Made by a program: the position numbers and the translations under genes
Part shown: positions 3,466 through 59,374 of the stretch, piece after piece
Layout of the letters: the number at the start of each line of letters is the position of its first letter
Numbering within the stretch: the first letter of the stretch is position 1
NCBI GenBank assembly: GCA_016198905.1
Contig: JACQHR010000013.1
Location: forward strand, 6,153 to 70,152
From: Candidatus Omnitrophota bacterium
GTDB lineage: Bacteria > Omnitrophota > Gorgyraeia > Aquiviventales > Aquiviventaceae
Direction of reading: 5' to 3'
DNA length: 64,000 bases
The notes under the pieces: generated by a model
What the model was told of the DNA's origin: nothing
What the model saw: only the letters and a program-made list of their open reading frames with translations
Database searches by the model: none

Positions 3466-3539
3466 CGCGACAGCACACAGCAGACAGCACACAGCAGACA
3501 GTAAAATCGTTCAACTCGCTCTCGTCCCTTTTGGTTCAT
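3462..3539 (-). CDS. candidate 25-codon upstream ORF (leader peptide) translationally coupled to aroK
   Basis: My own translation gives ATG at 3539 preceded by AAGAGGAAAG, with GAGGA 8 nt upstream. The peptide is MNQKGRERVERFYCLLCAVCCVLSR. The stop TGA (3464..3462) overlaps the aroK ATG (ATGA). The 3' half is encoded by the heptamer array. It is too short for the ORF track. Confidence 0.25.
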   Translation of the reverse strand: MNQKGRERVERFYCLLCAVCCVLSR

Positions 3540-3598
3540 CTTTGCTTTCCTCTTACTCAACGCACATTCTGTGTGCTGTGTGCTTAGTGCTGTTTGCT
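3471..3598. repeat. inverted heptamer arrays (CAGCACA / CTGTGTG) flanking a ~67-nt spacer
   Basis: Left array at 3471-3501: cagcaca cagcaga cagcaca cagcaga cag. Right array at 3569-3598: ctgtgtg ctgtgtg cttagtg ctgtttg. The reverse complement of the right arm matches the left arm at most positions. Confidence 0.85.
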
Positions 3599-5661: not shown

Positions 5662-6522
5662 TCATGACATCGCCCGAACAGCCCGCTCAAGAGCGTGTCG
5701 CATGACGCGGATGGGCGGCTCACGACGCAGCCACAAACGAAGCGATTCGGCACCTTGGTATAGTAGCATCGGAATCCCGTCGATCGCAAGCGCGCCACGC
5801 GCCCGGGCCGCTCGCACGAGCGCGGTCGTGGGCCGTCGGTAGACAAGATCGAACACGGCCAGACGCTTGTGGATGGCTTGTGGATCCACCGGCAGCGGAT
5901 CCTTCGGGCGCAGGCCAAGCGTCGTCGCGTTGACCAGCAAGGTGGAGTGCTCCAGCAACCTGCTCACTGCTCGTCGTTCGAAGGGCACGGTGGTAATCAT
6001 GCCTCCGGAAGAGCTGGCCTGCAGCCAATGGACAAACTGGGCCGCTCGTGCCGGCGTGCGATTCACAACGAAAATGGTCCGCGGACGCATCGACAGCAAC
6101 GCCCATCCCACGGCGCGCGCCGCTCCTCCGGCCCCCAATAGGACCACTTGCTGATCCCGGCAATTGCAGCCAAGATCTTCCTTCAGCGCCCGCCGGAATC
6201 CTTCAACATCGGTATTGTGCCCGACGAAGCGGCCCTCCTTGCGCACCAGCGTATTCACCGCGCCGATTGCCTTCGCCTCCGATGCGACACCCCGTTGAGG
6301 ATCGAGATGTCGCAGGATGTGTTGCTTGTGCGGCACGGTGACGTTGAGACCATCGACACCCGCTAACTCGAGGGCGCGCACGACAGGCTCGAGAAAGCGC
6401 GGCGGCACGTCGAAGGGCGTGTAGAACGCGTCTAGCCGCATCGCCCGCAAGGCCGCGGTGTGCATCGCGGGTGAGAGACTGTGGCTGACTGGATGACCGA
6501 GAATGCCGAAGAGGCGCGTCAT
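5662..6522 (-). CDS. aroE: shikimate dehydrogenase
   Basis: MTRLFGILGHPVSHSLSPAMHTAA..., NVTVPHK, NTD and LLGAGGAARAV. I chose the start at ATG 6522. The longer ORF start lies inside the heptamer array. Confidence 0.9.
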   Translation of the reverse strand: MTRLFGILGHPVSHSLSPAMHTAALRAMRLDAFYTPFDVPPRFLEPVVRALELAGVDGLNVTVPHKQHILRHLDPQRGVASEAKAIGAVNTLVRKEGRFVGHNTDVEGFRRALKEDLGCNCRDQQVVLLGAGGAARAVGWALLSMRPRTIFVVNRTPARAAQFVHWLQASSSGGMITTVPFERRAVSRLLEHSTLLVNATTLGLRPKDPLPVDPQAIHKRLAVFDLVYRRPTTALVRAARARGALAIDGIPMLLYQGAESLRLWLRREPPIRVMRHALERAVRAMS

Positions 6523-6529
6523 CAGAGAA

Positions 6530-6625
6530 GCACACAGCACACGGCACACAGCACACAGGATGGCCGAACGAAGAGGTTACGTTGCGTTTCCTGCTGTCTG
6601 CTGTCTGCTGTTTGCTGTCTGCTGC
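6530..6625. repeat. inverted heptamer arrays (GCACACA / CTGCTGT)
   Basis: Left array at 6530-6557: gcacaca gcacacg gcacaca gcacaca. Right array at 6591-6625: ctgctgt x3, ttgctgt, ctgctgc. There is roughly one mismatch per unit when the arms are paired. Confidence 0.85.
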
Positions 6626-8179: not shown

Positions 8180-8199
8180 TTCGTCTTCTCCTACGGACA

Positions 8200-8270
8200 T
8201 TTTGGATTTTGGATTTTTGATTTTGGATTGGACTGGTCATCTAAAATCCAAAATCGAAAATCTGAAATGC
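8200..8270. repeat. inverted heptamer arrays (TTTTGGA / AAAATCC) forming a hairpin
   Basis: Left array at 8200-8232: ttttgga ttttgga tttttga ttttgga ttgga. The loop is actggtcatct. Right array at 8243-8270: aaaatcc aaaatcg aaaatct gaaatgc. Confidence 0.85.
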
Positions 8271-12862: not shown

Positions 12863-13472
12863 CGGAGTCGCTTTCTGAAGGTGCGGCAGACGACGGCGCG
12901 GGCGTTGCGGGTGGCTGCAGGGCTGCCACGATCGATGCGGCGTGCGTCCCGTGCGCCACGACGGTGATGCGGCGGCGGTTCGTGCTCACGTGATTCAGAC
13001 GAATCTTAATATGATCTTCGGGCAAGAAACCCTCGAACCGCTCCGCCCATTCAATGAGCGTGATTTTATGCGGGGAAAAAATCAGATCCACGTCAAGCCA
13101 GGCCACCGCCGAGGCTCCCTCCAAGCGACAACCGTCGATGTGCACGAGTCCAGGATCGCCGCCCGCCCCCCCGGCCCGCTGGTCATCAGAGCCGGGGCGG
13201 GCGGCTTTCGTAGACGGCGGGCCGGGGGCGTACTCGCGCATGAGCACGAAGGTGGGGCTCTTGAGCGTCTCCTGCTCCCGTCCTAGCCCGCGCGCGATGC
13301 CCTGAATCATCGTCGTCTTGCCGCTGCCGAGCTCGCCGTAGAATGCGACGACGTCGCCTGCCTTCAGCAGACGCCCGAATTGCTCCCCCAACGCCTGAGT
13401 CTCTTCGAGCGAATGACTCACCAGTTCAAACGTTGATGCGGATTGAGAGGTTGCGGATGATCGTTTGCTCAT
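12846..13472 (-). CDS. tsaE: tRNA t6A biosynthesis ATPase TsaE (YjeE), carrying a GC-palindrome insertion
   Basis: GELGSGKTTMIQGIARGLG (Walker A), SPTFVLMREY ... VHIDGCRL. Between them lies a Gly/Pro/Ala/Arg-rich insert (APGPPSTKAARPGSDDQRAGGAGGDPG) encoded by the element at 13157-13230. Confidence 0.8.
   Translation of the reverse strand: MSKRSSATSQSASTFELVSHSLEETQALGEQFGRLLKAGDVVAFYGELGSGKTTMIQGIARGLGREQETLKSPTFVLMREYAPGPPSTKAARPGSDDQRAGGAGGDPGLVHIDGCRLEGASAVAWLDVDLIFSPHKITLIEWAERFEGFLPEDHIKIRLNHVSTNRRRITVVAHGTHAASIVAALQPPATPAPSSAAPSESDSDAPVD
13157..13230. repeat. GC-block palindromic element, family D copy 1 (inside tsaE)
   Basis: cGCCGCCCGCCCCCCCGGCCCGC-tggtcatcaga-GCCGGGGCGGGCGGC-tttcgtagac-GGCGGGCCGGGGGCG. 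It is the reverse complement of the uvrC copy, block for block. Confidence 0.75.
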
Positions 13473-19996: not shown

Positions 19997-20280
19997 TGCT
20001 CGCCCGGTTCGATGCGAGCGCCGGCTTGCAATTCATCAAGGGTGCGGTTCGACAGCTTCCCATAGCCTTCACACTTTCTGACCGAAAAATACACATCGCC
20101 CTTCGCTTCGTACGCCACCCCTTTGATCAGGAGCGTGGAGATCAGGTCGGTCATCTCCGGCACGACGTGCGCGGTCGCGAGAGGTTCCTTGGTCGGAGGT
20201 TCAATGCCGAAGCGCCGCAACGTCTCGCGATAGCTGGCCAAGTACCGCTGCGACACCTCGGCGCACTTCGCTTTCAAGTC

Positions 20281-20297
20281 GCTGTGTGCTGTGTGCT
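20281..20297. repeat. (GCTGTGT)x2+GCT heptamer repeat at the cysS frame break
   Basis: Read directly. On the coding strand it is GCACACA GCACACA GC. Confidence 0.85.
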
Positions 20298-20585
20298 ATC
20301 TCTTGTCTGGCCTTCTCGATAATCTTGTCATCCACGTCCGTCACGTTGCGCACAAAGTTCACCTGATAGCCGCGAAACGTCAGGTAGCGGCGCAAGACGT
20401 CAAACACGTAGGCGCTGCGCGCATGGCCGATGTGGGGCACGTCGTACACCGTCGGGCCGCACACGTACATCGTCACCGCCGGCGGGTGCAGCGGCGTGAA
20501 GGACTCAATCTTGCGCGTGAGCGTATTGTAGAGCTTCATCTATGATCCGTTCATGGCTCGGCAGCGAGCGGGTCGCCGGCACGGG

Positions 20586-20753
20586 CAGGTCCCGAGCCGG
20601 ACGTCTCGGAGGGTGAGCGGCCATGGTGCCCAGCACTAATTTTCATGCAGCCAACGATAGAAAATTGGTGCTGGGCGAGCGAGCCCGAGAGCCGAGCACC
20701 GGCGGCCACGGTGGGGCCGCCGAGTGCGTGCCGGCGAGGGACGCTGCCCGGGC
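20586..20753. repeat. long structured GC-rich element, family A copy 1 (cysE-cysS gap)
   Basis: It shares a 58-nt identical block with 46178-46235: gagcgagcccgagagccgagcaccggcggccacggtggggccgccgagtgcgtgccgg, at 20677-20734. The conserved 5' part is caggtccYgagccgRacgtctcggaggg. The internal hairpin differs in sequence from copy 2 but keeps its pairing. Confidence 0.8.
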
Positions 20754-20796
20754 CGATCGCGACCCACGATGGATGGACCCGCTGCCAGAGTTAAAA

Positions 20797-22027: not shown

Positions 22028-22157
22028 CAGCACAAAGCACAAAGCAGACAGCACAACACTTCCGCAGCAATGGTTTGTGGCATGAGATGCGACTGTTTCC
22101 TACTCAAATATGTCATCTACTTTGTGCTTTATGCTTTATGCTTTGTGCTGTGTGCTG
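22028..22157. repeat. inverted heptamer arrays (CAGCACA / CTTTGTG) flanking a ~60-nt spacer
   Basis: Left array at 22028-22058: cagcaca aagcaca aagcaga cagcaca. Right array at 22120-22157: ctttgtg ctttatg ctttatg ctttgtg ctgtgtg. The right arm lies in the ispD 3' end. Confidence 0.85.
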
Positions 22158-27167: not shown

Positions 27168-27174
27168 CTAGGCT

Positions 27175-27246
27175 GGGGCGTGGGGCACGAGACGTGGGGC
27201 GCGGGAACCGGCTCTCCCCCGTCTCCTGTCTCCCGCCCCTTGCCCC
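27175..27246. repeat. GC-rich palindromic element, family C copy 1 (fills the mlaE-mlaF gap; inverted orientation)
   Basis: GGGGCGTGGGGCACGAGACGTGGGGCGCGGGAACCGGCTCTCCCCCGTCTCCTGTCTCCCGCCCCTTGCCCC. Its reverse complement begins GGGGCAAGGGGCGGGAGACAGGAGACG, identical to the first 27 nt of the lnt copy. Confidence 0.85.
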
Positions 27247-35896: not shown

Positions 35897-37405
35897 TCAT
35901 GAGATTTCAGGTTTCAGTAAAGGAAAAAGAATGACGTCCTTGATCGAGGGTTGGTTCAGCAGAATCATCGCGAGGCGGTCGACGCCGACGCCAAGGCCGC
36001 CGGCCGGCGGCATGCCGTATTCGAGCGCCGTCACAAAGTCTTCATCAATCACCCGCCTTTGGGGCGTGGGGCGTGGGGCGTGGGGCGTGGGAGAACTGGT
36101 TTTCCCTCGCCCCCCGTCTCCCGCCCCCTGCCCCTCTAGCTGAGCTTCGAATCGGCGACGCTGCTCGATCGGATCATTCAACTCGGAGTACGCATTCGCC
36201 ACTTCCATGCCGCCGATGTAGAGCTCAAAACGCTCCGTGATGAGTGGATTGTCAGGTTTGCTCTTGGCTAGCGGCGACAACTCCGTCCAATAATCCACCA
36301 CGAAGAGCGGTTTCGATTTCGTCTTCGGGGAAAAGAGCTGCTCGGTCAGTCGGACGAGTTGGGAGCGGTTCAGTTCCTTGACCTGCATCCCCTTGCGCTG
36401 CAGGACCGTTTGCATCTCTTCGAGCGAGGACTGCGGCGTCAACCCCATCTCTTCCATCGCCTTGGCGAATGACACGCGCTCCCACGGCGGTGTGAGATCA
36501 ATCGGCTGACCTTGATACTCACATTGGAGCGAGCCGACGAGCGTTTTGGCCGCGTCGCAAATGAGCTCCTGCACGAAGTCCATCATGAACGCGCAGTCTT
36601 GATACGCCGCGTACGCCTCGAGCATCGTGAATTCCGGATTGTGCTGCGTCGAGAGGCCTTCATTGCGAAAGCAGCGGTTGATTTCATACACGCGTTCCAG
36701 TCCTCCAACGAGCAGCTTCTTGAGATACAGCTCCGGCGCGAGGCGCAGATAGAAATCCGCATCGAGCGCGTTGTGATGCGTGACGAACGGCTCGCCCGCG
36801 GCGCCCCCGGCGATAGGATGCATCATCGGCGTTTCGACTTCGAGAAATCCACGGCGCTCCAGCGTGCGCCGCAGCGACGCCAGCAACTGGCTGCGCTGGA
36901 AGAAGACTTTCCGTACCGGCTCATTGGCGATGAGATCAAGATACCGCTGGCGATAGCGGATCTCGACGTCCTTGAGCCCATGCCACTTCTCCGGCATCGG
37001 TCGCAAGGCCTTCGCCAATATGGTAAAGCGATCCACCTGCACCGTCACTTCATCGGTCTTCGTGCGAAAGAGCGCGCCGGTCACTCCGATAATGTCGCCC
37101 AGGTCCAGCTCGCCGAAAAGTGTAAACGCCTCATCGCCCACGCGATCCTTCTTGACACACATCTGAATCTTGCCGCTGGCGTCCCGCAGATCGGCGAAGT
37201 TCAGTTTGCCCATCGTCCGTTTGGCGCAGAGGCGGCCGGCCGTGCTAACCGACTTGCCCTCGGTGAACCCCGCCACCAACGTCTGGATCGGCTCAGCCTT
37301 CGGAAACGCGGCTCCATACGGAACGATTCCTTGCCGCTCGAGCGCATGCAGCTTGTCGCGGCGGGTGCGGGCTTGTTCGTTCAGATCAGGGTCGTTGTAA
37401 GCCAT
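35897..37405 (-). CDS. lysS: lysine--tRNA ligase (class II), carrying a palindromic-element insertion
   Basis: MAYNDPDLNEQARTRRDKL..., an OB-fold, and class II motifs (FLEVETPMMH; CFRNEG; GGLGVGVDRLAM). The start is ATG 37405. The insert GQGAGDGGRGKTSSPTPHAPRPTPQRR lies between RFEAQ and IDEDFVTALEYGMPP. Confidence 0.92.
   Translation of the reverse strand: MAYNDPDLNEQARTRRDKLHALERQGIVPYGAAFPKAEPIQTLVAGFTEGKSVSTAGRLCAKRTMGKLNFADLRDASGKIQMCVKKDRVGDEAFTLFGELDLGDIIGVTGALFRTKTDEVTVQVDRFTILAKALRPMPEKWHGLKDVEIRYRQRYLDLIANEPVRKVFFQRSQLLASLRRTLERRGFLEVETPMMHPIAGGAAGEPFVTHHNALDADFYLRLAPELYLKKLLVGGLERVYEINRCFRNEGLSTQHNPEFTMLEAYAAYQDCAFMMDFVQELICDAAKTLVGSLQCEYQGQPIDLTPPWERVSFAKAMEEMGLTPQSSLEEMQTVLQRKGMQVKELNRSQLVRLTEQLFSPKTKSKPLFVVDYWTELSPLAKSKPDNPLITERFELYIGGMEVANAYSELNDPIEQRRRFEAQLEGQGAGDGGRGKTSSPTPHAPRPTPQRRVIDEDFVTALEYGMPPAGGLGVGVDRLAMILLNQPSIKDVILFPLLKPEIS
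36061..36134. repeat. GC-rich palindromic element, family C copy 2 (inside lysS)
   Basis: (GGGGCGT)x4 GGGAGAACTGGTTTTCCCTCGCCCCCCGTCTCCCGCCCCCTGCCCC. The centre GGTTTTCCCTCGCCCC is shared with the lnt copy. The left arm has become a perfect heptamer tandem. Confidence 0.85.
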
Positions 37406-37490: not shown

Positions 37491-37598
37491 GGGCCACGGG
37501 TGACCCGGCGACGGGTCCCCTGCGCCGCCCGCAGAACCAGCGCGATAGTCGCTGGGCGAGGACGGCGCAGGGTGGCGCCGGGGCAGGCCCCGTGGCCC
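37491..37598. repeat. long hairpin element, family B copy 1 (lnt-lysS gap)
   Basis: The outer stem is GGGCCACGGG (37491-37500) / CCCGTGGCCC (37589-37598). The nested stems are CCCCTGCGCCG/CGGCGCAGGG and CCAGCG-cgatagt-CGCTGG. The 39-nt apex at 37527-37565 is identical to 46691-46729. Confidence 0.85.
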
Positions 37599-37605
37599 GC
37601 GAACG

Positions 37606-39297
37606 TTATCGAAGACGTGCTATCATCCAACCGAGGATGCCGATGAGGCAAGCCCAAGCGAACCAGTCACCCCAACGCTCATAGAGGGTGCGGGTGTAGC
37701 TCAGCGGGACATCACACGCGTGCGTGCCGGCAATGAAGAGTTCGCGACCCTGTTCATCGTGAACGCTTCCAAGAATGCGACCGGCGGGATCGATGCAGCC
37801 GGACCATCCCGTGTTGGCCGCGCGCACCACCGGCACCCGCAGCTCCACCGCGCGGAAGATCGAGGTCTGCGCGTGCTGATAGGCCGCCGCCGTCGGCCCG
37901 AACCACGCGTCGTTGGTGATGACCACCAGCATCCGCGCCCCTTCTTGGACAAACCGTCGCGCAAGCTCAGGAAACACATCTTCGAAACAGATGAGGACGC
38001 TGAACGGGGGCAAGGGGCGGGAGACAGGAGACGTGGGAAAACCGGTTTTCCCTCGCCCCTCGTCTCTCGCCCCCCGCCCCAGCACATCAGCTTCTTGCTC
38101 AATATGAAATACGGTGTGGTGATGCCCACGATCGAAGTCGCCGATCGGCGGCAACAGGCGGCGCAGCCACGGCAAGGTGCGTTCAAAGGGCACGAACTCG
38201 CCGAACGGGACCAGGTGCAGCTTGTCATAGCGCTGATCGATGACGCCGCGATGATCGACGAGTGCTGCGCTGTTGGTCATCATCCACTCCACGCCATCAA
38301 GATGTCCCATTGGAGCGCCCACCAACAGGGGTGCTTTCACCGACTTGGCAAGCGCAAAGACGCGCTGCGTGATCTCCTCATCGAGCCCGAAATAGCCCGG
38401 CACGGAAGTCTCCGGCCAGACGATGAGATCAGGCTCGGTGCGCGCAGCTTCACGCGTGAGCGTTTCGTACTGCGTCAAGATCCGCTCCTGGAACGCTTCG
38501 TCCCATTTCTCAGTTTGAGGGATGTTGCCCTGCGCCACCGCTACCCTGATCGATGAGGCATCGACGATGCTGCTGATGCGCCACGCGCCGTAGCCAAGCC
38601 CAATGAGGACGAGGATCATGACGCACGCCGCGCGAATAAGAACGGATTGTGTGCGTTTTCCGCCCCCCACCCCCCCGGCCCGCCGATTACTACCGTCGGG
38701 GCGGGCCCGCCCCCTGCCCCAAACTGTCGTGCTGATGTAGTCCGCAATCGCCGCATTCCCCATCACGATCAGGAACGATATCCCCCACGCGCCGGTCAGA
38801 TCTGCGAACTGAATGAGCGGCCGCCACGACGTCTGCGAATACGCCAGCAGATTCCAGCCCATCCCCGTGAGGACGTGGCTGCGCGCAAACTCCAGCGTCA
38901 CCCACAGCGCAGGAATCACAATCAGACTCCGGACACCAGATCTCAGACCACAGACAAACCTACCCTGATGTCTGATGTCTGATGTCTGATGTCTGACGAC
39001 GCACCAGCCGAAGATCCCGAAATAGAGCGCGAGGTACGCGCACAGCACGAGCCACCCGACGACGGTGACATAGATCAGCCACCACATCGAGCCGAGGAAG
39101 AACAGTGCACCGATGAGATACGACCACCAAAACGCCGCGCGCGATGACGTCGTGCGCAACAGCAACAGCCACGGAACGAAAGCAATCCACGCGCACCAGG
39201 GCTGATTGAAATTCGGAAATGACAGGACGAGCAGGATGGCGCTACTGAGCGCCGGCAACAGAGGACGAACGATGCGGGACAAACGACGCGTGGTCAA
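37606..39297 (-). CDS. lnt: apolipoprotein N-acyltransferase, carrying three repeat-derived insertions
   Basis: N-terminal multi-TM region plus a CN-hydrolase domain with E/K/C motifs (VWPETSVPG; YDKLHLVPFGE; VLICFED). The suggested start is TTG 39297, which overlaps the upstream stop (TTGA). The ORF-track Met at 39393 would overlap the upstream gene by 100 nt. Confidence 0.85.
   Translation of the reverse strand: MTTRRLSRIVRPLLPALSSAILLVLSFPNFNQPWCAWIAFVPWLLLLRTTSSRAAFWWSYLIGALFFLGSMWWLIYVTVVGWLVLCAYLALYFGIFGWCVVRHQTSDIRHQGRFVCGLRSGVRSLIVIPALWVTLEFARSHVLTGMGWNLLAYSQTSWRPLIQFADLTGAWGISFLIVMGNAAIADYISTTVWGRGRARPDGSNRRAGGVGGGKRTQSVLIRAACVMILVLIGLGYGAWRISSIVDASSIRVAVAQGNIPQTEKWDEAFQERILTQYETLTREAARTEPDLIVWPETSVPGYFGLDEEITQRVFALAKSVKAPLLVGAPMGHLDGVEWMMTNSAALVDHRGVIDQRYDKLHLVPFGEFVPFERTLPWLRRLLPPIGDFDRGHHHTVFHIEQEADVLGRGARDEGRGKTGFPTSPVSRPLPPFSVLICFEDVFPELARRFVQEGARMLVVITNDAWFGPTAAAYQHAQTSIFRAVELRVPVVRAANTGWSGCIDPAGRILGSVHDEQGRELFIAGTHACDVPLSYTRTLYERWGDWFAWACLIGILGWMIARLR
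38006..38080. repeat. GC-rich palindromic element, family C copy 3 (inside lnt; 75 bp)
   Basis: GGGGGCAAGGGGCGGGAGACAGGAGACGTGGGAAAACCGGTTTTCCCTCGCCCCTCGTCTCTCGCCCCCCGCCCC. This is an imperfect palindrome centred on AACCGGTT. Confidence 0.85.
38660..38720. repeat. GC-block palindromic element, family D copy 2 (inside lnt)
   Basis: CCGCCCCCCACCCCCCCGGCCCGCC-gattactaccgtc-GGGGCGGGCCCGCCCCCTGCCCC. Confidence 0.7.
38923..39000. repeat. inverted heptamer arrays (CAGACNN / TGATGTC) inside lnt
   Basis: Left array at 38923-38957: cagactc cggacac cagatct cagacca cagacaa. Right array at 38966-39000: tgatgtc x4 perfect, then tgacgac. The module is 78 nt (26 codons) and the frame stays open. Confidence 0.85.
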
Positions 39298-45872: not shown

Positions 45873-46107
45873 GTTCTGCGCTCGTAGCGTTATATGAAGA
45901 GTGACGTGGAAGAGGGCAGGCTCGGAACCTGCCCTCCTAAGAAAAAGTATACCTGAGGTTGCGGAACGCCGACGCAACTCTATGAAAAATTATGCAACAG
46001 CACGTCCCGCTAAGGGATTGTGCGAGGACTCAAGGAGGAGTAAGACAATTCCGTAGTGGTCACGTGTGGCGGGTGACACCTCATGAGTTGCGCGCCATCG
46101 GCCCGGA

Positions 46108-46254
46108 CAGGTCCTGAGCCGAACGTCTCGGAGGGCGAGCGACCATGGTTCCCGCACCCAGCGCGCTGGGTGCGGGAGAGCGAGCCCGAGAGCCGAGCAC
46201 CGGCGGCCACGGTGGGGCCGCCGAGTGCGTGCCGGTGAGGGACGCTGGCCGGGG
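46108..46254. repeat. long structured GC-rich element, family A copy 2 (ogt - HD-GYP gap)
   Basis: See copy 1. The internal hairpin here is the perfect 28-nt palindrome CCCGCACCCAGCGCGCTGGGTGCGGG (46151-46178). Copy 1 has GCCCAGCAC...GTGCTGGGC at that position. Confidence 0.8.
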
Positions 46255-46295
46255 CGGCAACATGTAGAGCCTCTCGGCAGGTTTGTGGGATGAAG

Positions 46296-46607
46296 CTAGT
46301 GTTCCTTCCATCCTTCGGCGTATAACAAGGCGCGCTTGCGAGCCAGACCCCGCGCATAGCCGCCAAGCGTTCCGTCTGAGCGCACGACGCGATGGCACGG
46401 GATGCAAGGCGCAAAGGGGTTCTGGTTCAGCGCGTTCCCGACGGCCCGCATGGCGCGCGGGCGGCCGATCTGCCGAGCCACCCACTGGTACGACCGGGTT
46501 TCGCCTTTCGGAATGCGACAAATCGCTCGGTAGACCTGCTGCTGGAACGGCGTCAATGATCCCCACGCGACGCGAGAAACTGTCCTTGGCGGTGGAAGCT
46601 GTCTCAT
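46296..46607 (-). CDS. ogt: methylated-DNA--protein-cysteine methyltransferase (stand-alone DNA-binding/active-site domain)
   Basis: MRQLPPP...TPFQQQVYRAICRIPKGETRSYQWVA...NPFAPCIPCHRVV contains the PCHR active site. ATG 46607 is preceded by GAGGAGGAG. The 218-aa ORF-track version extends through the upstream hairpin element and is too long. Confidence 0.85.
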   Translation of the reverse strand: MRQLPPPRTVSRVAWGSLTPFQQQVYRAICRIPKGETRSYQWVARQIGRPRAMRAVGNALNQNPFAPCIPCHRVVRSDGTLGGYARGLARKRALLYAEGWKEH

Positions 46608-46623: not shown

Positions 46624-46792
46624 GTGTCCCGAGTCAGAAATCCGTTCATCAACTGCGGAGCGGGTGGCACGGCGGAAGTCCCCTTCGCCCGCCCGCAGAA
46701 CCAGCGCGATAGTCGCTGGGCGAGGACGGGTGAAGGGTCCGCCGTGACAGGACCCGCCCAGGGATTGGTCGCGAATCTCTGACTCAGGACAC
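46624..46792. repeat. long hairpin element, family B copy 2 (uvrC-ogt gap)
   Basis: The terminal arms are GTGTCCCGAGTC (46624-46635) / GACTCAGGACAC (46781-46792). The nested stem is CCCTTCGCCCG/CGGGTGAAGGG. The apex is identical to copy 1. Confidence 0.8.
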
Positions 46793-48315
46793 TAGCGTGC
46801 GTGCAAACGCTGCAGAATCGTTTCGGCCAAGGCGCGGGAGCAGCGACCGGCCCGCGCCACGTCCTCCGCAGAAGCTCGCCGAAGTCCCTCCAACGATCCA
46901 AACTCTCGCAGCAACCAGAGCTTGCGCCGCGGCCCGACACCGGCAACTGCATCCAATGCCGACGCGGTCACGGCACGCTGCCGTCGCTGACGATGAAAGG
47001 TGATGGCGAAGCGATGCGCCTCGTCGCGCACGTGTTGCACCAAATGCAGGACCGGCGACGTCGGCAGCAGCACGACCGGCTCTTGCGACCCTGGCAGGAA
47101 GATCTGCTCGAACCGTTTGGCCAGTCCCATGATCGGCAGTGTCAGCGAGAGCGCCGTCAGCTCTTCGCACGCTGCCGCCAATTGCCCTTTGCCGCCATCA
47201 ACAAGAATCAGATCCGGCAGCGGCAGTTCCCCGGCCCGACCTTCACGAGCGCCGCCCGCCCCGGCTTTCGATCCAGGCGGGCCGGGGGGGCGGGCGGTCG
47301 CCAGCGATCCACTATAACGCCGCCGGATCACCTCGCGCATCATCTGGTAGTCATCTCCGCCGTAGGCGGATCCGCCTTTGGCGGAGATGCCCTGCGCCGT
47401 TTGAATCGTAAAGCGCCGATAGTGCGCCTTGTGCGGCTTGCCATCGACAAACACGACCATCGAGCCCACGGCGAAGTCGCCGAAGATGTTGGAAATATCG
47501 AAGGCCTCGATGCGGCGCGGCAACTGCGGCAATGTGAGGGCAGCCTGCAGCTGCTCGAGCGGGCCGGCAACGAGCGATTTCTCTTTCGCGACGATGATGG
47601 AGGTGAGGGCTTGGATTTGATCGCGTACTCGAGCCGCCTCCTCAAATCGTCGATGAGACGCGGCCTGCGTCATGCGCCGCGACAGATCCCGCAGCAGCCG
47701 CTCGCGCTTGCCCTCGAGAAACGCCACGAGGTCATCGACCATCCGCTGATAATTCTGCGGCGTCACGTAGCCCACGCAGGGGGCCAAGCACTGGCCGAGA
47801 TGATACTCGAGGCACGGGCTCTTCGGGAACGTCTTGCACGTGCGCATCGGAAACACCCGGCGCAGAAACCGCACCGCCTGATGCATGAGGGTCGCTTCGG
47901 TGTACGGACCGAAGTAGTGTGCGGCGTCGTCGAGCTTGCGCCTGGCCACCACAAGCCGAGGGAACGGTTCGTTCGTGATCTTCAGCATCGGGTAGCGTTT
48001 ATCGTCGCGGAAGGTCACGTTGTAATAGGGGGTGAGGTCTTTGATGAGCTGGGCTTCGAGCAGGAGGGCTTCGGCTTCCGACGCGGTTTGGCGCGTCTCG
48101 AGATCGGCCACCATCGTCATCATCCGTGCGATGCGGGGACTGAGGAGGGGGCGGGCCGTGCGAAAATACGAGGCGACGCGCTTGCGCAGGCTCAGCGCCT
48201 TGCCGACGTAGAGCAGCCGGCCCTGCGCATCGCGAAACAGGTAGACGCCGGGCTGATCCGGAAGATGCGCTACTCGCCGGCGAAGACTTGAAACACCGGC
48301 AGTTTGCCCAGCCAT
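46792..48315 (-). CDS. uvrC: excinuclease ABC subunit C, carrying a GC-palindrome insertion
   Basis: LPDQPGVYLFRDAQGRLLYVGKA (GIY-YIG), a UVR domain (FEEAARVRDQIQAL), an RNase H-like region and a (HhH)2 C-terminus. The start is ATG 48315. The insert SLATARPPGPPGSKAGAGGAREGRAGE lies before PDLILVDGGKGQL. Confidence 0.9.
   Translation of the reverse strand: MAGQTAGVSSLRRRVAHLPDQPGVYLFRDAQGRLLYVGKALSLRKRVASYFRTARPLLSPRIARMMTMVADLETRQTASEAEALLLEAQLIKDLTPYYNVTFRDDKRYPMLKITNEPFPRLVVARRKLDDAAHYFGPYTEATLMHQAVRFLRRVFPMRTCKTFPKSPCLEYHLGQCLAPCVGYVTPQNYQRMVDDLVAFLEGKRERLLRDLSRRMTQAASHRRFEEAARVRDQIQALTSIIVAKEKSLVAGPLEQLQAALTLPQLPRRIEAFDISNIFGDFAVGSMVVFVDGKPHKAHYRRFTIQTAQGISAKGGSAYGGDDYQMMREVIRRRYSGSLATARPPGPPGSKAGAGGAREGRAGELPLPDLILVDGGKGQLAAACEELTALSLTLPIMGLAKRFEQIFLPGSQEPVVLLPTSPVLHLVQHVRDEAHRFAITFHRQRRQRAVTASALDAVAGVGPRRKLWLLREFGSLEGLRRASAEDVARAGRCSRALAETILQRLHAR
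47229..47298. repeat. GC-block palindromic element, family D copy 3 (inside uvrC; inverted relative to the tsaE copy)
   Basis: CCCCGGCCCGA-ccttcacgagc-GCCGCCCGCCCCGGC-tttcgatccag-GCGGGCCGGGGGGGCGGGCGG. Confidence 0.75.
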
Positions 48316-51021: not shown

Positions 51022-51603
51022 TTACCAGTTCTCAACCGTGCGCTCGACGATGCGTCGAGCTAGATCAGTCAGCGCGCGGTCAAGCGCTTGGGATTCGGTT
51101 TCCACCGTCACGTTGTTCCCCGAGGCGAAATAACTCGTATCCCCCGTGAGGCGCTCCTCTTCCCAAATGATGGCGTTGTTCGATTGATCGATGAAGCGCA
51201 GATTGACGACGACGTTGAGCCGCCACTCCTCCACCTGCTGCTGGGCGTTGTAGCGCAACGCATCGCGGCGAAACTCCACGAGCTCGCCTTCCAGGCGCGT
51301 ATCCGCGCGATCTTGGCTCGACGGGCGCATGAGTCCGGTAAACTGGAACCGGTTGATCACGGCGTTGGTCAGATCGACTTCCATGCGGTGGCGATAGATC
51401 GGATACTGTTCAGTCCCGGACGTCAGCCGCGTGACATCGATCTTGTTCGCGAAGGGTTTGATGTAGACGGTCTTATAGTTGGAGGGCAAGCCGGGTCGAG
51501 CGGAGTAGCCGCATCCGGCAGACAGCAGACAGCAGACAGCAGACAGCACAAAAGAACAACACCACTTTCTGTGTGCTTTGTGCTGTGTGCTTTGTGCTTC
51601 CAT
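51022..51603 (-). CDS. lptE: LptE-like outer-membrane lipoprotein
   Basis: Lipoprotein signal peptide with lipobox LSAGC, followed by GYSARPGLPSNYKTVYIKPFANK.... The size and the position between bamD and holA fit LptE. The ATG overlaps the bamD stop (TAATG). Confidence 0.55.
   Translation of the reverse strand: MEAQSTQHKAHRKWCCSFVLSAVCCLLSAGCGYSARPGLPSNYKTVYIKPFANKIDVTRLTSGTEQYPIYRHRMEVDLTNAVINRFQFTGLMRPSSQDRADTRLEGELVEFRRDALRYNAQQQVEEWRLNVVVNLRFIDQSNNAIIWEEERLTGDTSYFASGNNVTVETESQALDRALTDLARRIVERTVENW
51517..51601. repeat. inverted heptamer arrays (AGCAGAC / TGCTNTG) encoding the lptE signal peptide
   Basis: Left array at 51517-51551: ggcagac agcagac agcagac agcagac agcacaa. Right array at 51567-51601: ttctgtg tgctttg tgctgtg tgctttg tgcttcc. 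Confidence 0.85.
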
Positions 51604-52571
51604 TATGAAGCGGGGGACGGACGGGGCGTCAGCACTTGCAGTCTGGCGGCCGCTTGCGCCGCCCAGGACGTGGCGCCGAACTGCTGGACAATCGCTTCGT
51701 AGTAGATGCGGGCGGACTCCGGATGCCGACGCCGCTCGTAGAACTGGGCGACCTGAAACTCGTGCTGGGCGCGCCGCGTCTTCAACTCTTCCAAGCGCCC
51801 GGCCGCTTCCTTCGAGAGGCTGCTTTCCGGATACTCGTGCACGAAGGCTTCCAGCTCGCGCACCGCGTGATCCGTCGGCGACTGATCGTACTCGGCTTTG
51901 AACGTCCCCTTCAAACTCGCCTGCGCGATTTGAAAACGCGCGTCATCGACGAGCGGCGAGTCCGGATAGCGCGAGATCACTTGCTCAAACGCGCTGACGG
52001 CTGCCTCGTAATCCTGCAGTGCTAAGTGTGCCAAGCCCAGCTTGTACTGCGCTAACTGGCCGTGCTCGCTGAAGGGCCCGTCATCGACGATGGCCTGAAA
52101 AATCTCCACGGCTTTGTCGCGCGCCGGCAAAAGCGCAGCGATACCGAAGAGTTTTCGCTTCTTGCCTGCGAGGAAGTAGTTGCCCAACTGATATTCCCGC
52201 TCGAGGATCTCGTCAAAGCGTTTGGTCGAGGGATAGGTTTGGACCGTCTTGCGATATTCAAGGAAGGCTTTGTAGTAGTCGCCTTCCTCTTCGTTGCAGC
52301 GGCCCACGTAGTATTGGGCTTCGGCGGCTTCGTGGGATTGCTTGTAGGATTTCAGGAGCTTGCGAAACTCGATGCCGGCTCGGTGATAGTCGTGGCGCTC
52401 GAAGAATCCCACCGCGAAGAGCAGCTGCTCTTCCGGCGTGTCCTTCACCGCTCCGCTGGGCCCGATCCATCCGGTCTGCGGCGACCATACCCAAGCGGCA
52501 AACGCCGTCGAAGGAACCCCGACCGTGAGGATCAGCGCACTGGCAATAGAGAGGAGAACACGAGGTTTCAT
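51603..52571 (-). CDS. bamD: BamD/YfiO-like TPR outer-membrane assembly factor
   Basis: MKPRVLLSIASALILTVGVPSTAFA signal peptide. TPR repeats include YKLGLAHLALQDYEAAVSAFEQVISRYPDSPLVDDARFQIAQ. The start is ATG 52571. Confidence 0.65.
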   Translation of the reverse strand: MKPRVLLSIASALILTVGVPSTAFAAWVWSPQTGWIGPSGAVKDTPEEQLLFAVGFFERHDYHRAGIEFRKLLKSYKQSHEAAEAQYYVGRCNEEEGDYYKAFLEYRKTVQTYPSTKRFDEILEREYQLGNYFLAGKKRKLFGIAALLPARDKAVEIFQAIVDDGPFSEHGQLAQYKLGLAHLALQDYEAAVSAFEQVISRYPDSPLVDDARFQIAQASLKGTFKAEYDQSPTDHAVRELEAFVHEYPESSLSKEAAGRLEELKTRRAQHEFQVAQFYERRRHPESARIYYEAIVQQFGATSWAAQAAARLQVLTPRPSPAS

Positions 52572-52829
52572 TGAGGTGCGTTCACGATACCAAATCCCTC
52601 TCGGAAAGTCAAAATGGAGCAGTGGCCCGGCACGGGGTCGGTTCGCGGCACCGCTCCGGCCCGCCCAGCGCGCGGGCCGTTCGCTCGGGTTCCAGGCCTC
52701 GCTCGCCTCGCTGACGCTCGGCACCATGCCCGCTCGGCCTTCCACACGCGCCGCTCACTCGACCCCGTACCGTCCCCATCACCATGCTCAGAGAATTCTG
52801 CCTGTCAGTGGCACCTGCTCAACTATGCT

Positions 52830-53824: not shown

Positions 53825-54106
53825 ACTAGTATTCCGTCCAGATGGAGTTGCGTGATGGGGCTTGGTCAGTGTGGCGGGTGACGCGCAGCCAGGTCCCCTG
53901 CGTCCGCCCGGAGTTGCCGGTCGCCGCAGGCGGCGGCTGTACGGCCGCCCGGCGACGAGGACGGACGCAGGGTGGCGAAGCGGGCCGTCGCCTCACGGCT
54001 TCCGGCACTCCCGTCGGCGACCACGCCGCTGAGGCGGCGCGGTGCCCGCCTCGGTCGCAGGCCCTGCCACACGGATCCATCACAGCAATGCTGACGGAAC
54101 ACTAGT
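53825..54106. repeat. long hairpin element, family B copy 3, with 14-bp terminal inverted repeats
   Basis: The terminal repeats are ACTAGTATTCCGTC (53825-53838) / GACGGAACACTAGT (54093-54106). The internal stems are CAGTGTGGC/GCCACAC and GTCCCCTGCGTCCGCCCG.../...GAGGACGGACGCAGGG, homologous to copy 1 with one extra compensated base pair. Confidence 0.8.
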
Positions 54107-59233: not shown

Positions 59234-59374
59234 AGCACTAAGCACACAGCAGACAGCACACAGTAGGAAACTTGAGTGCCAGTGAAATGTGTCGGAAGGA
59301 GCCGTGAGGCTGTCTTAGTTGTCCCCTGTCCACTTTGTGCTTTGTGCTTTCTGCTTTGTGCTTTCTGCTTAACG
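59234..59374. repeat. inverted heptamer arrays (CAGCACA / CTTTGTG) flanking a ~64-nt spacer
   Basis: Left array at 59234-59268: cagcact aagcaca cagcaga cagcaca cagtagg. Right array at 59333-59374: ctttgtg ctttgtg ctttctg ctttgtg ctttctg cttaacg. Confidence 0.85.

Follow-up and report, generated by a model that had tools for sequence, protein, structure and literature searches.

Family A, a folded palindromic repeat between the genes of a Candidatus Omnitrophota bacterium

What is a strongly folded, GC-rich sequence doing, more than once, between the genes of a groundwater-type bacterium from a phylum, Omnitrophota, whose members are uncultivated and mostly have compact genomes? The question is raised by a 64,000-nt stretch of Candidatus Omnitrophota DNA (GenBank assembly GCA_016198905.1, contig JACQHR010000013.1, positions 6,153–70,152), referred to here as the window. 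A reading of this DNA from its letters alone (the sequence-only reading) had described an element, Family A, in the cysE–cysS and ogt–HD-GYP gaps and had offered two interpretations, a functional RNA or a hairpin-dependent mobile element. The evidence favors the second. With a probability that we place slightly above even, Family A is a lineage-specific, noncoding, interspersed and non-autonomous mobile repeat of Candidatus Omnitrophica (Omnitrophota), of the kind represented by MITEs (miniature inverted-repeat transposable elements), bcr1 and ERIC. We favor this reading because orthologous sites are empty in relatives, the copies occur in both orientations, one copy contains a nested module, no context is common to the copies and neither an Rfam match nor a promoter or terminator is found. 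Family A is new as a sequence family, but it looks like selfish, structured DNA of a known kind and not like a regulatory RNA yet to be described.

Copies of Family A and their common fold

Family A is a noncoding repeat of ~145–180 bases. At least three copies, in both orientations, are present in the 64 kb of the window (copies 1, 2 and 3; Table 1), and a further copy (the L066 copy) lies inside the 326-nt ogt/HD-GYP gap of a relative, the metagenome-assembled genome (MAG) GCA_041643015.1, whose HD-GYP protein is 75% identical to that of the window. The four copies span 143–222 nt. Copies 1 and 2 are 79% identical over 179 nt (MAFFT, BLAST) and match at 138 of the 158 positions shared in the covariance-model alignment; both lie on the plus strand in the gaps where the sequence-only reading had placed them, although the homologous cores are slightly wider than it had drawn them. 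In the window, the 28-nt motif that it had found at both 5′ ends has exactly two occurrences, as does a 36-nt piece of the 3′ block; none would be expected by chance. The 58-nt block at the 3′ end is indeed identical between the two copies, with identity ending on both sides, and includes, besides the 3′ strands of P3, the entire P5 hairpin, CGGCGGCC-ACGGTGG-GGCCGCCG. Shared features that mark the L066 copy as a clear homologue are GAGCCGGACGT.., GAGCGGCCATGGTG, GAGCGAGCCC.., CCGAGC and the hairpin loop ACGGTGG.

Two covariance models, R1 and R2, score copy 1 at 177 and 168 bits, respectively. The element had been thought to be present twice, but a covariance model built on copies 1 and 2 and the L066 copy identifies a third, full-length copy (59 bits, E ~1e-8; 110 bits with the second model, R2) that is about 60–63% identical to copies 1 and 2. 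The profile search that had been proposed for collecting homologues missed this copy when an nhmmer profile of two copies was used; the covariance model alone found it. With filters off, the covariance model detects no further copy in the window or in 85 kb of relatives, and among unrelated viral loci totaling 1.25 Mb it accepts nothing at E ≤ 0.1. Copy 1 is enclosed by an additional inverted repeat that extends the outer stem. This repeat is present as previously described, except that its right arm runs one base farther, and its left arm, GGCAGCGAGCGGGTCGC, is unique in the window and absent from relatives, where the entire cysE–cysS gap is 6–9 nt.

The ends of the element pair over about 17–22 bp in all copies, and 90% of the cells of helix 1 are paired. 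The consensus outer stem formed by the two ends is about 17 bp with one bulge and leads into a 5-bp helix and a three-way junction. The first arm consists of CG, CUC-GAG, an internal loop with GGA, GGG(U)-(G)CCC, a tandem G·A motif (UGAGC-GCGAG), a 9-nt GGCCAUGGU bulge, YCCC-GGGR and a variable tip; the second arm is a 12-bp hairpin with the loop RCGSUGG. The folds of copies 1 and 2 have z-scores of −7.0 and −4.1, respectively, relative to shuffled sequence. Four unpaired motifs are constant: the GGA internal loop, the tandem G·A, the GGCCAUGG bulge and, in hairpin 2, the RCGSUGG loop. We considered a kink-turn and rejected it on inspection of the structure, where the tandem G·A motif lacks a 3-nt bulge in the right place.

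Pairing in the frame of this structure is maintained while sequence changes. In the four-copy alignment, 87.8% of cells are paired and 19 of the 51 pairs have changed on both sides and still pair, a result reached by 0 of 500 shuffles; in slid controls, 30–41% of cells are paired. The alignment of the three window copies gives 95.5% paired cells and compensated changes at 17 of 54 pairs (a total that takes in the three proposed tertiary pairs), again with 0 of 500 shuffles reaching this level and slid controls at 31–39%. Both alignments were fitted to the structure, and the pair counts lean its way accordingly; a hand alignment of the L066 copy shows compensation of the same kind, both in the outer stem and at the hairpin-2 base. 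These patterns point to genuine selection for pairing in the frame helices.

The tip of the long arm behaves differently. As had been noted, copies 1 and 2 carry different hairpins at the same position, but the tips are unrelated in sequence and differ in length, so that the covariation claimed for them is not covariation in the strict sense; the compensated pairs are those of the frame. The tip of copy 2 (26–28 nt) is palindromic right through its center. The 96-nt family and the ~70-nt module described below, both unrelated repeats of this lineage, likewise combine a conserved frame with a swapped tip. We read the swap as DNA-level remodeling of a palindrome or as nested insertion, because a palindrome that runs through its center comes from DNA processes and selection on an RNA gives no reason for one. 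In the L066 copy, a 68-nt extra module is lodged in an internal loop, and the same module stands alone in the window.

Table 1. Positions of Family A, its parts and neighboring features (window numbering unless a relative is named; fold energies for the element-sense strand and its complement)
Feature	Position	Strand	Fold energy, sense; complement (kcal/mol)	Remarks
Copy 1, homologous core	20577–20755	+	−138.3; −132	179 nt; Y-shaped: outer stem P1/P2, long arm P3–P4 with internal loops, second hairpin arm P5
Copy 1, outer-stem extension, left arm	20560–20576	+		GGCAGCGAGCGGGTCGC; pairs with 20759–20786 in the minimum-energy fold
Copy 1, outer-stem extension, right arm	20759–20786	+		GCGACCC...GACCCGCTGCC
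Copy 1, variable tip hairpin	20628–20676	+		P4 base GCCC/GGGC, then 17-bp stem and 15-nt AT-rich loop
Copy 1, P5 hairpin	20696–20727	+		loop ACGGTGG at 20708–20714
Copy 2, homologous core	46099–46256	+	−102.5; −89.5	158 nt; R1 147 bits; aligned with copy 1
Copy 2, variable tip	46150–46177	+		perfect palindrome (T)CCCGCACCCAGCGCGCTGGGTGCGGG(A); self reverse-complement BLAST match 28/28
28-nt 5′ motif	from 20586 and from 46108	+		CAGGTCCYGAGCCGRACGTCTCGGAGGG
58-nt identical block	20677–20734 = 46178–46235	+		exact match
Copy 3	52629–52771	−	−94.9; −74.8	143 nt; diverged; z = −4.1 (sense) vs −2.0 (complement); orientation opposite to copies 1 and 2
L066 copy	L066:9698–9919		−145.6; −144.3	GCA_041643015.1
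cysE stop; cysS ATG	20797; 20539	−		flank copy 1
ogt stop; HD-GYP ATG	46296; 45872	−		flank copy 2
Mem_trans-family stop; BamD/YfiO-like ATG	52830; 52571	−		flank copy 3
Promoter-like motifs	45946–45977; 52584–52612; L066:9975–9990; L066:3222–3267; L070 about 7225			TTGACT-17-TATCGT reads 52612–52584
69-nt repeat	47229–47297; 13159–13227			first copy inside uvrC (−); 84.5% identical
38-nt palindrome	47352–47389; L066:8793–8830			in uvrC; 94.7% nucleotide identity, window vs L066
96-nt family	37497–37592; 46661–46756; 53868–53975			central hairpin replaced in third copy
~70-nt module	53982–54058; L066:9732–9800			central hairpin swapped
~75-nt family	27172–27246; 36060–36134; 38007–38083			GGGGCG-rich arms around GGTTTTCC
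Heptamer-array hairpins, window	3470–3598; 6515–6622; 8199–8268; 22028–22157; 51518–51612; 59316–59372
Heptamer-array hairpins, relatives	L059:4814–4907; L066:3140–3215; L070:6860–6935
Spurious open reading frames	46010–46414; 46081–46566	−
cysS break	20280–20294	−		residues 1–82 end at 20294; residues 92–490 start at 20280
IS1595-family transposase gene	L070:10241–11110			GCA_023247315.1

Insertion sites in the window and its relatives

The window has a GC content of 61% and nearly all of its genes are on the minus strand. Copies 1 and 2 lie ~40 nt past the minus-strand stop codons of cysE and ogt, respectively, upstream of the next minus-strand gene, which bears out the placement after a stop codon and before the next gene given by the sequence-only reading. 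Copy 1 lies 33 nt before the cysS start, within the conserved string radA-PIN-ispD-ispF-cysE-cysS-tmk-holB-metG, and copy 2 lies inside murJ-uvrC-ogt-HD-GYP-prfB-secA. Copy 3 is located between the stop codon of a Mem_trans-family gene and a promoter-like site, TTGACT-17-TATCGT, that precedes a BamD/YfiO-like gene; the names of these two genes follow from gene order shared with L066 and L072 and the Pfam families found there. The three junctions (cysE/cysS, ogt/HD-GYP and Mem_trans/BamD-like) have no gene context in common.

The cysE–cysS gap is 257 nt in the window, compared with 6 nt in L058 and 9 nt in L062 and L063; in L059 it is 94 nt and is filled by an unrelated hairpin. The ogt and HD-GYP genes, separated by 423 nt in the window, have a 4-nt overlap in L068 and L069 and a spacing of 64 nt in L072, and the 594-nt gap of L070 contains no Family A. 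At the site of copy 3, L066 has a heptamer-array hairpin in the place of Family A and keeps the downstream promoter-like TTGACTTT...TGGTATGGT. Because the same junctions are empty in other relatives, the genes overlapping by 4 nt or lying 6–9 nt apart, the Family A copies are best understood as insertions.

Relative to the genes around them, copies 1 and 2 are antisense, copy 3 and the L066 copy sense. A 10-residue, palindrome-derived insertion in UvrC, common to the window and L066 and lacking in L072 and L068, marks these two lineages as sisters. Copy 2 and its counterpart in L066, which occupy the same ogt/HD-GYP junction in opposite orientations relative to the genes, may therefore be either orthologous, with an inversion in place, or the products of independent insertions.

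The position of the copies admits a further explanation, namely that they are hairpin modules selected by the host as factor-independent or bidirectional terminators, insulators or 3′-end stabilizers in the slot between stop codon and promoter, and that duplication or recombination, not transposition, spread them. A stop codon precedes, and a conserved promoter-like −10 region follows, copies 2 and 3, the L066 copy and one member of the 96-nt family, and relatives fill the same slots with unrelated inverted-heptamer-array hairpins (cysE/cysS in L059, Mem_trans/YfiO in L066 and ogt/HD-GYP in L070). Several relatives, however, have no gap at all at these junctions, only an overlap or a spacing of 6–9 nt, and therefore need no terminator there. 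Modules of this kind would work in either orientation, fitting the mixed orientations of Family A, but none of the copies is followed by a U-tract, and copy 1 sits inside the conserved ispD-ispF-cysE-cysS-tmk string with no promoter after it. A plain terminator needs neither a conserved three-way junction nor conserved loops, and sister families insert in frame within coding sequence. We regard host-selected hairpins as a rather doubtful explanation.

The promoter-like motifs directly downstream of the repeats are themselves conserved between genomes, with GGTATACTTT before the HD-GYP gene and the site already mentioned before the BamD-like gene. They are absent from relatives in which the genes overlap, and the gap expansions would therefore have come with new or separate promoters. 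Window proteins also occur in short Logan contigs from runs SRR12113385, SRR12113390 and SRR12113401. A contig that bears cysE (L057) ends inside the identical block of Family A, at the match of window position 20717; assembly graphs break in this way at repeats.

Mobile repeat or functional RNA

The sequence-only reading recognized no known RNA family by eye, and an Rfam scan agrees. Rfam 15 gives no match at the gathering threshold anywhere in the window, not even a tRNA, and at E ≤ 10 copies 1 and 2 and the L066 copy return noise only (≤16 bits, compared with thresholds of at least 40); the families covered include riboswitches, T-box, RNase P, tmRNA, SRP, 6S, Y RNA, ribozymes and HEARO. 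For exact 19-mers of the identical block, GTDB representative genomes give three chance matches and JGI metagenome contigs give 50; no match extends past ~35 nt. In IMG/VR the 19-mer has no match, and two degenerate family patterns occur at 132 loci, none of them accepted by the covariance model; a distant blastn search of PLSDB plasmids gives no match. A full-text literature search found nothing on interspersed repeats in Omnitrophota.

Several more specific assignments were considered and set aside. An independent transcription unit was rejected in the light of the result that neither a sigma-70-like promoter nor an intrinsic terminator is found at copies 1 and 2. A riboswitch or T-box leader would be in fixed sense orientation before functionally related genes and conserved at orthologous loci; copies 1 and 2 run antisense to the gene that follows, the genes downstream of the three copies (cysS, HD-GYP and BamD-like) have no relation to one another, and relatives lack orthologous leaders. 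In a retron, inverted repeats a1/a2 surround the structured msr-msd RNA just before a reverse transcriptase gene; such a gene is missing beside every copy (cysE/cysS, ogt/HD-GYP and Mem_trans/YfiO). For an integron attC site, the ends lack a GTTRRRY/RYYYAAC core and the neighbors are syntenic housekeeping genes, not cassettes.

That the repeat encodes a small protein is, in our estimation, extremely improbable. Copies 1 and 2 do have a Shine-Dalgarno (SD)-like GGAGGG with an ATG 10 nt later and read MVP...GERAREPSTGGHGGAAECVP in the same frame, and their difference in length (21 nt) is a multiple of three. The reading is contradicted by the other two copies: in copy 3 the conserved GAGCGAG falls in another frame, so that the peptides are unrelated, and the L066 copy stops after five codons (ATG GTG TCC CCC GAG TAA), and its SD-like motif and ATG stand on either side of the 68-nt module. 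Querying 5.8 billion proteins with a six-frame pseudo-protein, in order to catch copies miscalled as genes, brings up no homologue.

In the mobile-repeat reading, an enzyme encoded elsewhere would copy Family A to new sites, recognizing its folded ends or hairpins either as double-stranded terminal inverted repeats or as folded single-stranded DNA. The fold is probably under selection because these folded ends or hairpins are what the enzyme recognizes. The element would survive where it is least harmful, in the slot from a stop codon to the next promoter or start codon, and would there probably be cotranscribed with the host operon. The transcript would form a very stable stem-loop on either strand that could, like REP, ERIC and Correia elements, end, process or stabilize the message upstream of it. 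DNA-level palindrome remodeling and the nesting of other small palindromic modules would have their hot spots at the outermost stem and at the tip of the long arm. Compared with MITEs in general, Family A is of the expected size (<~400 bp) and without coding capacity, the shared open reading frame not being conserved in copy 3 or the L066 copy. It has terminal inverted repeats, although its ends diverge and covary and are not the most conserved part, and its copies are dispersed (three in 64 kb and one in another MAG) at sites that are empty in relatives.

A number of observations weigh against a mobile repeat. (i) The most conserved part is internal (the 3′ block, the hairpin-2 loop and the GGCCAUGG bulge) and the termini diverge and covary, which is unusual for a terminal inverted repeat bound by a transposase and more like a folded functional nucleic acid. 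(ii) No target-site duplication or common target motif is visible at the four insertions, where the boundaries of the element are not sharp (the flanks also pair with each other). (iii) No transposase, RAYT/TnpA, TnpB or reverse transcriptase was found; the 10 plus-strand open reading frames gave only rpsT, and the minus-strand genes are housekeeping genes by synteny. (iv) The known copies number only four and come from only two genomes. (v) The insertions could be old, or the relatives could have lost their copies by genome streamlining. (vi) In each of the four copies, the fold of the element-sense strand is better than that of the complement. (vii) A candidate 3-bp pairing between the GGCCAUGG bulge and the hairpin-2 loop covaries, surviving both substitutions at these positions, G·U to A–U in copy 2 and C–G to G–C in copy 3. 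We treat this pairing as a lead, not as proof; it involves two substitutions and was spotted after looking for complementarity.

The last two points would be expected of a true structured noncoding RNA, that is, a multicopy small RNA or cis-acting module made from the element-sense strand, with a three-way junction and a loop–bulge contact, whose dispersal would be secondary. Protein sequestration, an enzyme guide or scaffold and a ribozyme are functions that could be suggested. Helices that covary around constant unpaired motifs (the GGA loop, UGAGC/GCGAG, the GGCCAUGG bulge and the RCGSUGG loop) are in keeping with this idea, as are the greater stability and better z-scores of the element-sense strand and the candidate pseudoknot of (G/A)(C/G)C with G(G/C)U; the core block is moreover 80% identical between the window and L066, compared with 74% for ogt coding DNA and 75% for the HD-GYP proteins. 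With its unpaired motifs conserved and its sense strand better folded in all four copies, the element may have a specific RNA function. G·U pairs exceed A·C mismatches by 6 to 2 over four copies in an alignment fitted to the modeled strand, and by 3 to 2 over two copies, counts too small and biased to decide the strand.

An RNA of this type is harder to reconcile with the genomic setting. Copies 1 and 2 are antisense to every neighbor and have no promoter-like site upstream, orientation relative to transcription flips at one locus between two genomes, and the gene neighborhood is not conserved. The foreign 68-nt module inside an internal loop of the L066 copy, the freely swapped tips and the lack of an Rfam match also count against it. 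Taken together, we consider a structured noncoding RNA unlikely.

It is also conceivable, though less so, that Family A represents a new class of mobile folded nucleic acid and is more than a passive palindrome, being a ~150-nt three-way-junction module of RNA or single-stranded DNA with a loop–bulge contact and conserved recognition loops that would serve as substrate, guide or scaffold of an Omnitrophota mobility or defense enzyme. Its swapped tip and its variable outer stem would be parts that are either tolerated or programmable, and the module would have parallels in omega-RNA with TnpB/IscB, in bridge RNA with IS110 and in the folded attC site with its integrase. Preferred folding of one strand would be compatible with the IS200/IS605-derived PATE and omega-RNA family, whose members have distinct left and right ends with subterminal hairpins, insert 3′ of a fixed tetra- or pentanucleotide without duplicating it and are associated with tnpA/tnpB; the four left flanks have no common target motif, no tnpA or tnpB lies nearby and Rfam HEARO does not match. 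Should an enzyme prove to use the folded form specifically as its substrate or guide, the importance of the finding would be much greater.

Among known mobile repeats, bcr1 of the Bacillus cereus group is a ~155-bp, mobile and transcribed, MITE-like element with a two-stem-loop, cruciform-like fold kept by compensatory changes (PMC3184786). The likeness to Family A extends to similar size, noncoding and interspersed character and a distribution that is not conserved between related strains (PMC3184786), and Family A likewise has two arms on a common stem, with 19 of 51 pairs compensated. Unlike bcr1, which is flanked by 5-bp direct repeats and known to be transcribed, Family A has no visible direct repeats and is known here from sequence alone; it is GC-rich, has a replaceable tip and in one copy a nested foreign module, and the two have no sequence similarity.

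ERIC/IRU (127 bp) and the Correia elements of Neisseria are imperfect palindromes found in either orientation in transcribed intergenic regions of operons. Their size variants arise by internal insertion or deletion at fixed points, and they are cotranscribed, fold as long hairpins in RNA and influence how mRNA is processed and how stable it is. Family A resembles them in its placement, its mixed orientation and its length variants, but it has no sequence similarity to these elements, occurs in another phylum and folds into a branched three-way structure rather than a simple rod, with termini less conserved than the interior. The 26-bp terminal inverted repeats and TA duplication of Correia elements are not seen in Family A.

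REP/BIME and REPIN sequences are GC-rich extragenic palindromes that occur in mosaics with other motifs between operon genes and act as mRNA stabilizers or in a terminator-like manner; REP and REPIN sequences are mobilized by RAYT, an IS200/IS605-like Y1 transposase, and recognized as folded single-stranded DNA. The window contains a comparable mosaic of several palindromic modules. REPs, however, measure 20–40 nt and carry a conserved GTAG-type tetranucleotide at the 5′ end, REPINs being simple doublets, and we rejected this assignment for Family A on grounds of size, branching and the missing GTAG-like motif. No RAYT gene was found in the DNA available. The palindrome CACCCAGC..GCTGGGTG was also rejected as a REP-like unit, with two occurrences only (copy 2 and the L066 copy).

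Neighboring palindromic families

Family A belongs to a community of palindromic elements by which the intergenic spaces of this lineage have been enlarged. Its significance lies in part in this setting: a single lineage has been colonized by several GC-rich palindromic families that pry apart genes overlapping or only a few bases apart in relatives, that nest in one another and of which one enters uvrC in frame. Within this community, Family A offers a clean case in which to measure fold-preserving evolution in a mobile repeat, and a covariance model is now at hand for a census of Omnitrophota and for seeking the mobilizing enzyme. There is also a practical side. Such repeats break short-read assemblies, create long spurious open reading frames and can pass for riboswitches or small RNAs.

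A 69-nt GC-rich palindromic repeat lies in frame in uvrC and lengthens UvrC by 22 residues (ARPPGPPGSKAGAGGAREGRAGE), which the UvrC proteins of three relatives lack. Rickettsia palindromic elements (RPE) insert in frame within Rickettsia genes in a similar manner. This likeness concerns the uvrC repeat and not Family A itself, all known copies of which are intergenic and have no sequence relationship to RPE. The 38-nt palindrome in uvrC adds 10 residues (SAKGGSAYGG) and is the insertion common to the window and L066.

The three copies of the 96-nt structured family have a conserved frame, and the second lies between uvrC and ogt, so that ogt is flanked by repeats on both sides. The ~70-nt structured module, likewise with a conserved frame, adjoins the third 96-nt repeat in the window and is nested inside the Family A copy in L066. 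The three copies of a ~75-nt palindromic family align in both orientations. Homology of Family A to the 96-nt family or to an 88-nt repeat family was rejected; local alignments are no better than those of shuffled sequences (z < 2). Spurious open reading frames kept open by the GC-rich repeats include two on the minus strand around copy 2 (Table 1). In L070, the IS1595-family transposase gene lies ~1.2 kb downstream of the HD-GYP gene, at a locus with no Family A copy.

Many intergenic gaps hold heptamer-array hairpins, in which both arms consist of tandem 7-nt units in inverted arrangement (for example GCACAAA/TTTGTGC, ATTTTGG, CGACAAT and ATCGGGT). Different heptamer units occupy the same stop-to-promoter slots in different Omnitrophota genomes. 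In the window, cysS is split into two frames, and the break coincides with a heptamer present twice in a row, GCTGTGT GCTGTGT, like those that make up the intergenic arrays; it may be a real frameshift or an assembly error. One Logan contig (L004) starts ~80 nt downstream of this break, near window position 20199.

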